Part shown: positions 287 to 10,975 of the stretch, in pieces
Position numbering within the stretch: position 1 is the stretch's first letter
Layout: every line of letters starts with the position of its first letter
Virus genome (UHGV): UHGV-0100061
Direction: 5' to 3' (one strand)
DNA: 11,055 bases
Origin: a virus
The notes under the pieces: generated by a model
Database searches by the model: none
Told to the model about the DNA's origin: nothing
What the model saw: only the letters and a program-made list of their open reading frames with translations
Program-made: the position numbers and the translations under genes

Positions 287-1351
287 TTAAGTTGATTCCA
301 GACTTCCTTTGGTAAAAGCTTGTATCAGTCTGTTTGCTGCTGCTTTCTGCGCTGCCACATTGGCAATAACAGATAGTTTTTCCTGGCTGGCTTTCGTGCA
401 GATCCCCGCCCAGTTATCCATCAGAAAAAAATCCTCTCTTTCTGCAGAGCTGGTAGTTGCACATAGTTTTTCGATCATAGAAGTTATTTCTGCGATGGAA
501 TGATTAACCATCATCTGTTGAACCGCAAAACCGAAAGCGTTAATCATTACTCCATGGAACTGAATATAATCGCGCTTGTACGTAGCGTGGTGTACACCAT
601 GTCGGATTGAGTCAATCTGAGTTAGTGTAATCCATGCCTCCCAGACAGATTCTATATATCCCATTTCAAGTTGTTGATTGCCGTTCCTGGCGAACTTTGA
701 CGTTGCATCAGTGAGTGCCTTGAAACTCACCCACATATTACTTTTTAATGGCACTACGTTGTGTTCAAAATCGGTTATATCGGCAAATACAGTATGTTGG
801 GTCAGGAAGGATATCATTCCCTGAGCAATATCATCCCGGCCGTTATACGCCATATTGATGGTCGCTGATGGCTTAGAAACGTTGTTATTTATGTCCGAAA
901 AGAACTGCTGCCGGGTTTTTAGCGGCAGATTCATTGTAAGCATCATGGGAACCATGAGCGTTGATGGGGAACTTCGGCAAAATATCTCAATGCCAGCTGC
1001 ACGATGTTGACCATCAAAAAGTTTTATTTCGGCGTCGAGGGGAATTCTGGCTATACCAACATTTGTGTTGCCAAACGGTACAAATTCTATATTCGAATCA
1101 CAGTTACCTACGAGAGGGGGAATGATAAAAGGCTCATTTCTTGAGTCTGCGTTAGTGAGATAATTTAAAAATTTTCGTACTCGATTTGGATTAATTTCTC
1201 GCTGAGAGCGTTCCAGTGTATGGCCGTAATTATCTGAAGCGAGGAAACGAGCCAGCGATCTTCCTGGTATGGTAAGGAAGAGTGTAACAGTACCACCCTG
1301 TACACCTTGCGATGCCGGAAATTCGAATGAATGATTACCAACCTGACTCAT
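287..1351 (-). CDS. DGQHR-domain protein, DndB-like (ParB/sulfiredoxin-like superfamily); stand-alone cargo gene
   Basis: 354-aa ORF. N-terminal FEFPASQGVQGGTVTLFLTIPGRSLARFL and downstream LERSQREINPNRV...KLFDGQHRAAGI match the hallmark DndB/DGQHR signature (FPA..G.QGG...Y, QR, DGQHR). Strong SD (AGGAGG, plus 1356..1361 complement) 4 nt before ATG at 1351..1349. Start overlaps the upstream ORF stop as ATGA. Confidence 0.85.
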   Translation of the reverse strand: MSQVGNHSFEFPASQGVQGGTVTLFLTIPGRSLARFLASDNYGHTLERSQREINPNRVRKFLNYLTNADSRNEPFIIPPLVGNCDSNIEFVPFGNTNVGIARIPLDAEIKLFDGQHRAAGIEIFCRSSPSTLMVPMMLTMNLPLKTRQQFFSDINNNVSKPSATINMAYNGRDDIAQGMISFLTQHTVFADITDFEHNVVPLKSNMWVSFKALTDATSKFARNGNQQLEMGYIESVWEAWITLTQIDSIRHGVHHATYKRDYIQFHGVMINAFGFAVQQMMVNHSIAEITSMIEKLCATTSSAEREDFFLMDNWAGICTKASQEKLSVIANVAAQKAAANRLIQAFTKGSLEST

Positions 1352-3690: not shown

Positions 3691-4059
3691 TCAGGCGGCT
3701 TTGATAGTCATATCATCTGGATCAAATATTCCTGATGTATCGATATCGGTAATTCTTATTCCTTCGCTACCATCCATTGGAGGCCATCCTTCCTGACCAT
3801 TTCCATCATTCCAGTCGAACTCACACACAACACCATATGCATTTAAGTCGCTTGAAATTGCTATAAGCAGAGCATGTTGCGCCAGCATGATTAATACAGC
3901 ATTTAATACAGAGCCGTGTTTATTGAGTCGGTATTCAGAGTCTGACCAGAAATTATTAATCTGGTGAAGTTTTTCCTCTGTCATTACGTCATGATCGATT
4001 TCAATTTCTATTGATGCTTTCCAGTCGTAATCAATGATGTATTTTTTGATGTTTGACAT
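3691..4059 (-). CDS. ea10: Ea10 (lambda early-left protein, ssb-like)
   Basis: 122-aa ORF MSNIKKYIIDYDWKASIEIEIDHDV...DPDDMTIKAA, recognised as lambda Ea10. Position downstream of cIII in the pL operon matches lambda. Confidence 0.8.
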   Translation of the reverse strand: MSNIKKYIIDYDWKASIEIEIDHDVMTEEKLHQINNFWSDSEYRLNKHGSVLNAVLIMLAQHALLIAISSDLNAYGVVCEFDWNDGNGQEGWPPMDGSEGIRITDIDTSGIFDPDDMTIKAA

Positions 4060-4319: not shown

Positions 4320-4901
4320 ATGAACAACTCATGGTGGCAGGAACTAATGCATTTTTTCCTGCAAGGAATGACACTTAAACAGTTGATTCATATGCTAATC
4401 ATCCTAATCATATTGATTATTGTTATGCCTGTAAGCGTAAAAGAATGGATAAACCTGCATAATCCAGAAATCCTTCCTCATTACTGGATGTATTACATCC
4501 TGTTGTTTTGCGTTAGCTATGTGCTTAACGGCGTTGTTAATTCCGCTTATCACGCTGTGACTGAAAGAATTGAGATATTCGCTGCTCAGAAGCGCAAATC
4601 TAAAGAAGAGAAATACGTGCAAGATTTGTTTGATTCGTTAACTCTTGGAGAAAGAGCGTATTTGGCATTCGCTGTAGCCGCTAATAACCAGCTAAAGACA
4701 GAAAAGGGAAGCCCTGAAGCAATCTCATTGCTCGAAAAAGGGCTTCTTATTCGGGTACCTTCTGCTACTGGATATCCTGAAATCGACCGTTTTGTTATCC
4801 CGGAACGCTATAGAAATGAGTGCTACATTAGGTTTGCTGGGAAGAAAGACAGTCTTATGGATGAACTTATCGCTCAGGATAAGCATGGCAAAAACAAGTA
4901 A
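4320..4901 (+). CDS. sieB: SieB superinfection exclusion protein
   Basis: 193-aa ORF MNNSWWQELMHFFLQGMTLKQLIHMLIILIILIIVMPVSVKEWINLH..., recognised as lambda SieB, with an N-terminal transmembrane segment. Plus strand, converging on N as in lambda. Confidence 0.9.
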   Translation: MNNSWWQELMHFFLQGMTLKQLIHMLIILIILIIVMPVSVKEWINLHNPEILPHYWMYYILLFCVSYVLNGVVNSAYHAVTERIEIFAAQKRKSKEEKYVQDLFDSLTLGERAYLAFAVAANNQLKTEKGSPEAISLLEKGLLIRVPSATGYPEIDRFVIPERYRNECYIRFAGKKDSLMDELIAQDKHGKNK

Positions 4902-4917
4902 TTAGCAAATTAATTTA

Positions 4918-5190
4918 TCATCTCGCCGTCAGTTGTTTTGATTTCCGGTAGCCTGCCGCGTAAATGGCTACGTTTGGCAGGCAAATACTTCCACTGCATT
5001 CATCTGCCTTCTTGCAGCGAAGGCTTCCGAGTGATGCTGCTTTGTCTGCTCTGACGCAACCAGAGAGCTTTAGCGCAATTTTTCGCGCCAGTCGCTGTTC
5101 TTGCATTGCCTGCTCACGTTGAGCCTGTCTGCGTGCTCTGCGGCGATTTCTGGCGTTATCGTCAGCCAGATATGTAATGACTACTGCCAT
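4918..5190 (-). CDS. N: N-like transcription antitermination protein (arginine-rich motif)
   Basis: 90-aa ORF with N-terminal arginine-rich motif DNARNRRRARRQAQREQ and C-terminal AIYAAGYRKSKQLTAR resembling P22 gp24/N family. GGAGG SD 5 nt upstream of ATG 5190..5188. First gene downstream of pL/nutL. Confidence 0.8.
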   Translation of the reverse strand: MAVVITYLADDNARNRRRARRQAQREQAMQEQRLARKIALKLSGCVRADKAASLGSLRCKKADECSGSICLPNVAIYAAGYRKSKQLTAR

Positions 5191-8750: not shown

Positions 8751-8783
8751 AGGCCTGCTGGTAATCGCAGGCCTTTTTATTTG
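8751..8783 (+). terminator. Rho-independent terminator between ren and ninB (tR2-like)
   Basis: 8751..8774 aggcctgc-tggtaatc-gcaggcct (8-bp stem) followed by tttttattt. Confidence 0.6.
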
Positions 8784-8798
8784 GGGGAGAGGGAAGTC

Positions 8799-9239
8799 AT
8801 GAAAAAACTAACCTTTGAAATTCGATCTCCAGCACATCAGCAAAACGCTATTCACGCAGTACAGCAAATCCTTCCAGACCCAACCAAACCAATCGTAGTA
8901 ACCATTCAGGAACGCAACCGCAGCTTAGACCAAAACAGGAAGCTATGGGCCTGCTTAGGTGACGTCTCTCGTCAGGTTGAATGGCATGGTCGCTGGCTGG
9001 ATGCAGAAAGCTGGAAGTGTGTGTTTACCGCAGCATTAAAGCAGCAGGATGTTGTTCCTAACCTTGCCGGGAATGGCTTTGTGGTAATAGGCCAGTCAAC
9101 CAGCAGGATGCGTGTAAGCGAATTTGCGGAGCTATTAGAGCTTATACAGGCATTCGGTACAGAGCGTGGCGTTAAGTGGTCAGACGAAGCGCGACTGGCT
9201 CTGGAGTGGAAAGCGCGATGGGGAGACAGGGCTGCATGA
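8799..9239 (+). CDS. ninB: NinB (Orf-family recombination mediator)
   Basis: 146-aa protein from ATG 8799 (MKKLTFEIRSPAHQQNAIHAVQQILPDPTKPIVVTIQERNRSLDQNRKLW...), recognised as lambda NinB. The track ORF start at 8781 is a non-ATG upstream extension. Confidence 0.9.
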   Translation: MKKLTFEIRSPAHQQNAIHAVQQILPDPTKPIVVTIQERNRSLDQNRKLWACLGDVSRQVEWHGRWLDAESWKCVFTAALKQQDVVPNLAGNGFVVIGQSTSRMRVSEFAELLELIQAFGTERGVKWSDEARLALEWKARWGDRAA

Positions 9240-10108
9240 TAAATGTCGTTAGTTTCTCCGGTGGCAGGACGTCAGCATATTTGCTCTGGCTAATGGAGCA
9301 AAAGCGACGGGCAGGTGAAGACGTGCATTACGTTTTCATGGATACAGGTTGTGAACATCCAATGACATATCGGTTTGTCAGGGAAGTTGTGAAGTTCTGG
9401 GATATACCGCTCACCGTATTGCAGGTTGATATCAACCCAGAGCTTGGGCAGCCAAATGGTTATACGGTATGGGAACCAAAGGATATTCAGACGCGACTGC
9501 CTGTTCTGAAGCCATTTATCGATATGGTAAAGAAATATGGCACTCCATACGTCGGCGGCGCGTTCTGCACTGACAGATTAAAACTCGTTCCCTTCACCAA
9601 ATACTGTGATGACCATTTCGGGCGAGGGAATTACACCACGTGGATTGGCATCAGAGCTGATGAACCGAAGCGGCTAAAGCCAAAGCCTGGAATCAGATAT
9701 CTTGCTGAACTGTCAGACTTTGAGAAGGAAGATATCCTCGCATGGTGGAAGCAACAACCATTCGATTTGCAAATACCGGAACATCTCGGTAACTGCATAT
9801 TCTGCATTAAAAAATCAACGCAAAAAATCGGACTTGCCTGCAAAGATGAGGAGGGATTGCAGCGTGTTTTTAATGAGGTCATCACGGGATCGCATGTGCG
9901 TGACGGACATCGGGAAACGCCAAAGGAGATTATGTACCGAGGAAGAATGTCGCTGGACGGTATCGCGAAAATGTATTCAGAAAATGATTATCAAGCCCTG
10001 TATCAGGACATGGTACGAGCTAAAAGATTCGATACCGGCTCTTGTTCTGAGTCATGCGAAATATTTGGAGGGCAGCTTGATTTCGACTTCGGGAGGGAGG
10101 CTGCATGA
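9236..10108 (+). CDS. ninC: NinC (PAPS-reductase-like nin-region protein)
   Basis: 290-aa protein from ATG 9236 ([42 protein letters not shown]...), with an SGG phosphoadenosine-phosphosulfate-reductase-like motif. ATGA overlap with the ninB stop. Recognised as lambda NinC. Confidence 0.9.
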
Positions 10109-10278
10109 TGCGATGTTATCGGTGCGGTGAATGCAAAGAAGATAACCGCTTCCGACCAAACCAACCTTACTGGAATAGATGGTGTCTCCGGTGTGAAAGA
10201 ACACCAACAGGGGTGTTACCACTACCGCAGGAAAAGGAGGACGTGTGGCGAGACAGCGACGAAGTATCACCGACATAA
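10105..10278 (+). CDS. ninD: NinD (small Cys-rich, zinc-ribbon-like protein)
   Basis: Manual translation, 57 aa: [57 protein letters not shown], with CxxC ... CxxC. ATGA overlap with the ninC stop. Absent from the supplied ORF track. Confidence 0.7.
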
Positions 10279-10421
10279 TCTGTGAAAACTGCAAATACCT
10301 TCCAACGAAACGCTCCAGAAATAAACGCAAGCCAATCCCAAAAGAATCTGACGTAAAAACCTTCAATTACACAGCTCACCTGTGGGATATCCGGTGGCTA
10401 AGACATCGTGCGAGGAAATGA
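10245..10421 (+). CDS. ninE: NinE (GTG start, overlapping the ninD 3' end by 34 nt)
   Basis: Manual translation, 58 aa: (M)[66 protein letters not shown] at 10234..10240. No in-frame ATG is available, so GTG at 10245 is used. Recognised as NinE family. Confidence 0.6.
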
Positions 10422-10423
10422 CA

Positions 10424-10765
10424 ATGGATTATTCACAGTTAAGTGATTTTGAAATTAACAGAATGGTAGGAGACATAATTTTTAAAGGCCTTTGGGCATG
10501 TAAACCGGAAACGTCAGGGAATAACACCAACAAATGGTATTACGGAAATGCTGATACAACTTTTGAGCCATTAAACCCTTTACCTGACTACTGCAATGAT
10601 CCGAGCGCTTCATGGCCGATTATTGAGAAATACAGGATTTCTATCTTAGACCAGTTAACTGAATGGTGTGTGGATGCAAAAGGCGTAAGCCCAATATTTG
10701 ATACCAGACCTCTCCGCGCCGCCATGATTGTCTTTCTCCTGATGCAGGAGGCCAATAATGCTTAG
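10424..10765 (+). CDS. Hypothetical nin-region protein (113 aa), function unknown
   Basis: [90 protein letters not shown]... Start 10424 has SD GAGGA 7 nt upstream; the alternative in-frame ATG at 10418 overlaps the ninE stop. The track start at 10382 is an extension. Confidence 0.7.
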
Positions 10766-10952
10766 CCCATCTCAATCCCTTCAATACCTGAAAGGAAGCA
10801 TAGAGCGGGCTTCAATGTGCACAGAGTGGATTCTATCTAGGTTTAGCGCATACAGAAGATTGCCGGTAAAGGGCATGCCAAGCAAGTCGATGCTGCATAT
10901 GCAAAAGAATGCGCGCTGGAAGGTATGGCGAGAACACAGGTTATCTGGCTGA
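10758..10952 (+). CDS. ninF: NinF-like protein, probably chimeric (N-terminal about 20 aa NinF-like, remainder unrelated)
   Basis: 64-aa [24 protein letters not shown]..., with strong SD AGGAGG at 10744..10749. N-terminus matches lambda NinF as recalled, but the Cys cluster of NinF is missing after about residue 21. Confidence 0.5.
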
Positions 10953-10975
10953 AAGAGGGGGTTATTAAGGCGTGA
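10847..10975 (+). pseudogene. ybcO-like 3' remnant (DUF1364-type nuclease C-terminus) lacking a start
   Basis: Frame-2 translation after two in-frame TAG codons (10838, 10844): [42 protein letters not shown]. Its stop overlaps the rusA GTG start as GTGA. No plausible start codon or SD for a full gene; the C-terminal about 30 aa resemble E. coli YbcO as recalled. Confidence 0.35.

Follow-up and report, generated by a model that had tools for sequence, protein, structure and literature searches.

Within the nin region of phage P22 (record X78401.1) the genes follow each other in the order ninD, ninE, ninX, ninF and ninG, and the same succession ninD-ninE-ninX-ninF is found in phage L. In phage lambda, by contrast, ninE runs straight into ninF and there is no ninX. 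The gene ninX has been described as the divergent member of otherwise near-identical nin regions (PMC8022706; PMC4159516), and the nin genes are described as nonessential (PMC8022706). This description, together with the existence of lambda without ninX, shows the gene to be dispensable.

The stretch of DNA analysed here (the window, 11,055 nt of the virus genome UHGV-0100061) is a lambdoid early region that carries exo, bet and gam, and further on N, an S24-type repressor gene, cro, cII, O, P and ren. The genes cro, cII, O, P and ren were named by their position and by the annotation of matching phage records, ren having no Pfam match. After ren come a tR2-like terminator, ninB, a PAPS-reductase-like gene in the position of ninC, ninD (10105-10278; Pfam NinD 1.8e-41), ninE (10245-10421, plus strand; Pfam NinE 3.3e-45), the open reading frame (ORF) that is the subject of this work, then a 64-aa ORF and finally the beginning of rusA (GTG at 10973).

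The ORF of interest occupies positions 10424-10765 of the plus strand, opens with ATG at 10424, closes with the TAG stop at 10763-10765 and encodes 113 amino acids. An earlier reading of the same DNA, made from the sequence only, had concluded that its product could not be assigned to any family. The product, however, matches Pfam PF10765 (Phage_P22_NinX, DUF2591) with 60.8 bits (E 1.9e-16), far above the gathering cutoff of 22.6, and the match is full length, protein residues 2-108 being aligned on positions 1-114 of the 114-position profile. It also matches PHROG 444 (E 8e-44), is 61% identical end to end to the P22 NinX encoded in X78401.1 (BLASTP, E 7e-44) and shares 96.5% amino-acid identity with the NinX proteins of Salmonella phages L and ST104. 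PF10765 was matched by all 100 of 100 diverse relatives of the protein, while NCBIfam held no model matching it. The protein is a stand-alone single domain whose length falls within the range of about 100-140 aa typical of the family, and it carries all the family motifs with two substitutions, A62 for the usual D and R95 for the usual N. Judged by these comparisons, the ORF is the ninX gene of the NinX/DUF2591 family, in the allele of phages L and ST104.

This allele is by no means rare. At a nucleotide identity of at least 90% it was found in 127 phage records, annotated there as 'Phage NinX' or 'DUF2591 family protein', and it is present in 607 of 5426 complete E. coli genomes (~11%, about one in nine; at least 80% of the gene length covered), where its RefSeq annotation reads 'phage protein NinX family protein'. 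The gene is thus already known: it was first named, long ago, in P22, is common in prophages and is ordinary in this locus.

A longer reading of ninX from GTG at 10382 is possible, but the NinX relatives align without gaps from Met-Asp-Tyr and so, by alignment, the true start is the ATG at 10424. The Shine-Dalgarno sequence GAGGA (10412-10416, plus strand) lies within the 3' end of ninE, 8 nt ahead of this ATG, and only 2 nt separate the start codon from the ninE stop codon TGA (10419-10421). The sequence-only reading had taken the ORF for a real gene with a good Shine-Dalgarno sequence, and this is borne out. The ORF has 928 homologues at E≤1e-3, and a profile search of 1.84 billion representatives gave 1892 clusters (50% identity) at the same threshold. 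These numbers, and the fact that the motifs are kept while synonymous sites vary, place the reality of the gene far beyond chance.

The neighbourhood of the gene also follows a described pattern. Among 80 related viral contigs NinE is encoded directly upstream of NinX in 77, and on the evidence of gene order the window has ninX in the canonical ninE-ninX-ninF place of a P22-type nin region. The megablast similarity of the window to lambda imm21 stops at 10418. The pairwise alignment sets ~373 nt of the window (10419-10791, plus strand), a ninX cassette that includes the P22-type 5' end of ninF and is present in P22 and L too, against ~33 nt in lambda. The earlier claims that lambda has no gene at this position and that the ORF is a small accessory gene of the nin region therefore agree with the alignment. 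The suggestion that the gene is an unusual insertion does not, since the arrangement is standard in P22 and L. The NinX proteins of P22, L, ST64T and ST104 agree with that of the window in family, length, place after ninE and conserved motifs. Two differences should be mentioned. In comparison with P22 NinX, the N-terminal variable segment of the window protein (residues 16-55) represents a different allele, and, unlike in P22 and L, the downstream ninF is not intact but truncated and fused to a remnant of ybcO.

The gene that follows ninX had been read as ninF. It is a 64-aa chimeric ORF (10758-10952, plus strand), the start of which overlaps the 3' end of ninX by 8 nt, and only its first ~62 nt (20-22 codons, with 16 of 22 amino acids identical) match ninF of P22 and L, whereas the final 87 nt ahead of rusA correspond to the 3' end of the phage 82 gene ybcO/orf96. 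The ORF has no Pfam match. From these matches it looks like the scar of a deletion or recombination event that joined ninF to ybcO, and the name ninF can be kept for its first codons only. Phage records match the intervening sequence (about 10822-10885) over its full length only where the chimeric arrangement is present; it is also matched by an unannotated region in two Stx1 phage records. The same ninF-ybcO scar is present in many related phages, for example PhiR11_1 and ev243, and is annotated there as hypothetical or as ninF.

The distribution of conservation along NinX was studied in alignments of 131 cluster representatives, of 100 representatives and of 11 annotated phage lineages, the latter including Jerseyvirus, Kagunavirus, Jedunavirus, Certrevirus, Phapecoctavirus and Vibrio phages, and all of them gave the same picture of three conserved blocks separated by two hypervariable segments. 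Block 1 (residues 3-16, Y..SDFEIN..V; 10430-10471, plus strand) corresponds to the N-terminal helix, which has a capping box of the form S-x-x-E. Its residues Y3, S7, D8, E10, I11, N12 and V15 are at least 90% conserved among the 131 representatives and invariant or nearly so in the 11 lineages. Block 2 (residues 55-72, D-Y-C-N-x-P-x-D/A-A/S-W-P-I-I..x-I; 10586-10639, plus strand) includes a helix (residues 60-69) and Cys57, which is conserved in 100% of both the 131 representatives and the 11 lineages, the residues N58, P60, W64, P65, I66, I67 and I72 being conserved at 88-98%. Block 3 (residues 95-107; 10706-10744, plus strand) starts with N/R95 and forms the C-terminal helix; none of the 100 representatives deviates at A100 or L105, and its hydrophobic run is the most conserved part of the protein. 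The motif PLRAAMI(V/C)FL of this block is identical in all 11 phage lineages while the synonymous (third) codon positions vary, and therefore selection acts on the protein. Because the synonymous positions vary between lineages in this way, we also rejected the idea that the block is conserved as a DNA or RNA element.

Hypervariable segment 1 (residues 17-54; 10472-10585, plus strand) shows a column conservation of mostly 0.05-0.4 with many gaps. Segment 2 (residues 75-94; 10646-10705, plus strand) consists of beta strands and loops around Trp81 (10664-10666), which is itself well conserved (0.91), the remaining positions having values of 0.1-0.4, with big indels between alleles. The Trp, Cys and Asp residues that had looked conserved in the single sequence were thus picked correctly in part: one 11-letter motif is a true family motif, whereas KGLWACKPE lies in hypervariable segment 1 and has a conservation of 0.18 or less. 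Among the best 150 of the 1892 clusters nearly all proteins are ~100-140 aa long and match end to end, and no extra domains were found in them. The protein is acidic, with a pI of 4.4 and a net charge of -6 in the window, a median pI of 4.7 in the family and 92% of the members below 6.

The divergence of ninX is much greater than that of its neighbour. An identity of at least 90% is reached by NinE in 407 of 438 phage records, in contrast to 65 of 601 for NinX, and at loci in which NinX identity falls to 70-80% that of NinE is still at least 93%. Within the gene the divergence is distributed in a mosaic way: the window and P22 proteins share ~91% identity over residues 56-113 but are unrelated in the stretch 16-55, and other alleles combine the N-terminal half of the window protein with different C-terminal halves or a different C-terminal variable segment. 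Intragenic mosaicism of ninX was recorded for the window (10424-10765) and for locus L086 (1674-2009). As far as can be judged from the alleles compared, the two variable segments recombine independently and the conserved blocks appear to serve as the recombination joints. Four database calls (P0003, P0028, P0030 and P0091) present NinX fused to NinE, to DUF1364 or to Phage_stabilise, or as a fragment in a Q-like protein. Each of these clusters has only one or two members, and the fusions are probably artefacts of frameshift, deletion or gene calling rather than real domain fusions.

The AlphaFold2 model of NinX, built with a 36-sequence alignment, has a pLDDT of 86 and a pTM of 0.80. It contains helices at residues 8-19, 60-69 and 96-112, strands at 73-77, 80-84 and 91-93, and a low-confidence hairpin region; the lowest pLDDT values of the model (61-71) fall in hypervariable segment 1. 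According to this model NinX is predicted to be a soluble alpha/beta/alpha sandwich. The only strong structural matches to it in the PDB are 1R7L, a phage protein of Bacillus cereus ATCC 14579, and 4PUP, an uncharacterised protein of Burkholderia cenocepacia, both of them unannotated products of structural genomics. Foldseek agrees on 1R7L (TM 0.65), and the BFVD fold search returned only uncharacterised viral proteins. The three-dimensional similarity to 1R7L is accompanied by a sequence identity of 14-16% and that to 4PUP by an identity of 13%, and neither structure was detected when the NinX family profiles were searched against the PDB sequences. 1R7L is presumably the founder of the Pfam family PF18066, 'Phage ABA sandwich domain'. 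At E≤1 PF18066 is not matched by the window protein, and only 2 of 100 NinX relatives match it, marginally (best E 0.099). As judged from the predicted model, the kinship of NinX to PF18066/1R7L and to 4PUP is one of fold and not of sequence. A relationship to thioredoxins was also considered and rejected: a weak single-sequence PDB match to thioredoxin-f (E 0.04) was lost with family profiles, which brought up nothing else, and there is no CxxC; the match was put down to chance. The combination that would mark the thioredoxin superfamily, a CxxC or CxxS following the conserved Trp within a thioredoxin fold, was not found in NinX.

The expression of ninX may be understood by analogy with lambda and P22. 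A tR2-like intrinsic terminator is located between ren and ninB (8751-8784, plus strand); its strong hairpin has an 8-bp GC-rich stem with 6 GC pairs, followed by the T-run TTTTATTT, and its position corresponds to that of tR2 annotated in P22 and also to tR2 of lambda. Upstream of ninX no promoter-like site above chance was found. Given the terminator, the lack of an own promoter above chance and the tight spacing and overlaps with the neighbours, ninX would belong to an early transcript that begins at pR and, through N antitermination, reads past the tR2-like terminator. Its translation would be coupled to that of ninE and of the following ORF, as the organisation of lambdoid operons suggests.

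The function of NinX had been called uncharacterised in the sequence-only reading, which held that a clear match to a characterised housekeeping family of phage proteins would speak against its view of the gene. No such family was matched, PHROG 444 carries the label 'unknown function', and in the literature searched for NinX, DUF2591, PF10765, the ABA sandwich and anti-defence functions of the nin region only mentions in genome annotations, and neither a function nor any experiment on NinX, were found. The PADLOC-DB profiles gave no defence-system match to NinX at E≤0.01. The gene occurs in temperate and in virulent phages, inside clusters of replication and nucleotide-metabolism genes, where its neighbours encode helicase, primase, DNA polymerase and dUTPase (Jerseyvirus, Kagunavirus, Jedunavirus, Certrevirus and Vibrio phages); across the distant phages no recurrent named neighbour is evident from the annotations.

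The account of the locus as a whole, with its identity as ninX, early expression and the form of the protein, appears to us highly probable. As to the mechanism, we tentatively suggest that NinX may be a dispensable early accessory protein that acts by binding a host or phage protein and not by catalysis. The early operon, the dispensability of the gene, the small soluble acidic single domain whose fold is not enzyme-like, the alternation of a conserved core with variable segments and the replication-cluster context point to such a role. Phages encode small acidic inhibitors, among them lambda Gam, the dGTPase inhibitor Gp1.2 of T7, Ugi and Ocr. NinX has no homology to any of these; the resemblance is one of general type, and it is on this basis that the mechanism is proposed. 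NinX would act stoichiometrically on a protein partner. The likeliest candidates would be a factor of DNA replication, recombination or nucleotide metabolism, from host or phage, and a component of host defence. The scaffold or a conserved contact would come from the invariant helices, and recognition would be tuned or escaped by means of the variable segments. Some features of the protein fit this scheme less easily. One would not usually expect an invariant cysteine such as Cys57 in a protein that only binds, and it could point to chemistry or to metal or redox sensing. The hypervariable segments may be simply unconstrained loops and not arms-race surfaces. The conserved polar residues may be structural only, since they largely fit helix N-caps (S7-x-x-E10, N58-x-x-x-D62 and N95-P96).

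A different explanation also centres on Cys57. In it NinX would be a small enzyme, or else a sensor of redox state or metal, that works through this residue, with D55, N58 and R98 nearby; in early infection it would act on a small molecule or on a substrate derived from a nucleotide. The complete conservation of Cys57, the conservation of D55, N58, D62 and R98 at 82-98% and the location of homologues near dUTPase and DNA-metabolism genes in several phages are all in keeping with such an activity. NinX nevertheless has no similarity to any enzyme family, and we regard a catalytic or sensory role as clearly unlikely. The alpha-beta-beta-beta-alpha arrangement of the domain may bring to mind a surface resembling that of a double-stranded RNA-binding domain, with which NinX would bind nucleic acid as an accessory of recombination or replication, alongside NinB/Orf, RusA or the replisome. 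The acidic charge of the protein argues against this, and a basic binding surface combined with a strong match to the dsRBD fold was not found, so that this role is very unlikely.

The hydrophobic C-terminus allows one more explanation, in which NinX is anchored by it in the membrane and serves as a superinfection-exclusion protein; a membrane segment had been hinted at when the stretch AAMIVFLLM was noticed in the single sequence. The stretch is indeed hydrophobic, and genes of the nin region or its neighbourhood sometimes encode exclusion functions, a sieB gene being present in the window at 4320-4901. The hydrophobic run, however, is too short, as it comprises only ~11 residues (97-107) with R98 inside it and Q108 and E109 directly after, and the best 19-aa Kyte-Doolittle mean of the protein is 1.19, which is below what a membrane span needs. 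In the model the same residues belong to the helix 96-112, which is packed in the globular domain at a pLDDT of ~95, and the C-terminus is accordingly predicted to be a packed helix and not a membrane span. NinX has no signal peptide, and the gene is also found in virulent phages, for which exclusion of the prophage type makes little sense. With these points against it, membrane-anchored exclusion by NinX is hardly credible. The probability that the binding role and these three alternatives leave over belongs to something else.

In a wider reading NinX/DUF2591 may be a large family of proteins, so far unrecognised as such, by which phages counter host defence or take over the host, although we consider this rather unlikely. 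Under such a scheme the invariant helical core, with Cys57 and the C-terminal block, would engage a conserved bacterial target, and an arms race with host immunity would account for the two independently recombining hypervariable segments. The family would then comprise ~1900 clusters at the 50% identity level, from phages of gamma- and beta-proteobacteria, both temperate and virulent, and the window would carry one ordinary allele of it. For the window itself the finding has little weight, the gene being a routine and nameable part of P22-like nin regions. The family is nevertheless a fair and tractable experimental target, as it is very widespread, under strong purifying selection in three short blocks and hypervariable elsewhere, and a partner or activity of NinX, once found, would annotate thousands of phage genes. 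This opportunity belongs to the NinX family in general and is not a discovery of the window.

Several other genes of the window deserve a brief mention. Just beyond exo, in the early left operon, there is a gene for a DndB-family protein of 354 aa (287-1351, minus strand; Pfam DndB 3.8e-46, PADLOC DndB 4e-37), with no further dnd genes near it within the window, and it may act on its own as an accessory gene connected with DNA modification or defence. The early left region also encodes, between gam and N (4918-5190), a DUF2528 protein (3691-4059, minus strand; 8.4e-47) and the superinfection-exclusion protein SieB (4320-4901, plus strand; Pfam 1.1e-25). The ninC position is occupied by a gene for a 310-aa PAPS-reductase-domain protein (9176-10108, plus strand), the true start of which may lie further downstream, since the listed GTG overlaps ninB by 64 nt. 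In most related loci another gene replaces it, PhiR11_1 having a DNA N6-adenine methyltransferase gene there. For the regions 10105-10421 and 10758-10825 of the window it may be noted that NinD has two CxxC cysteine pairs and that NinF of P22 and L contains a cysteine-rich segment. NinE is very basic and has one CxxC, and the acidic NinX is flanked by these proteins.
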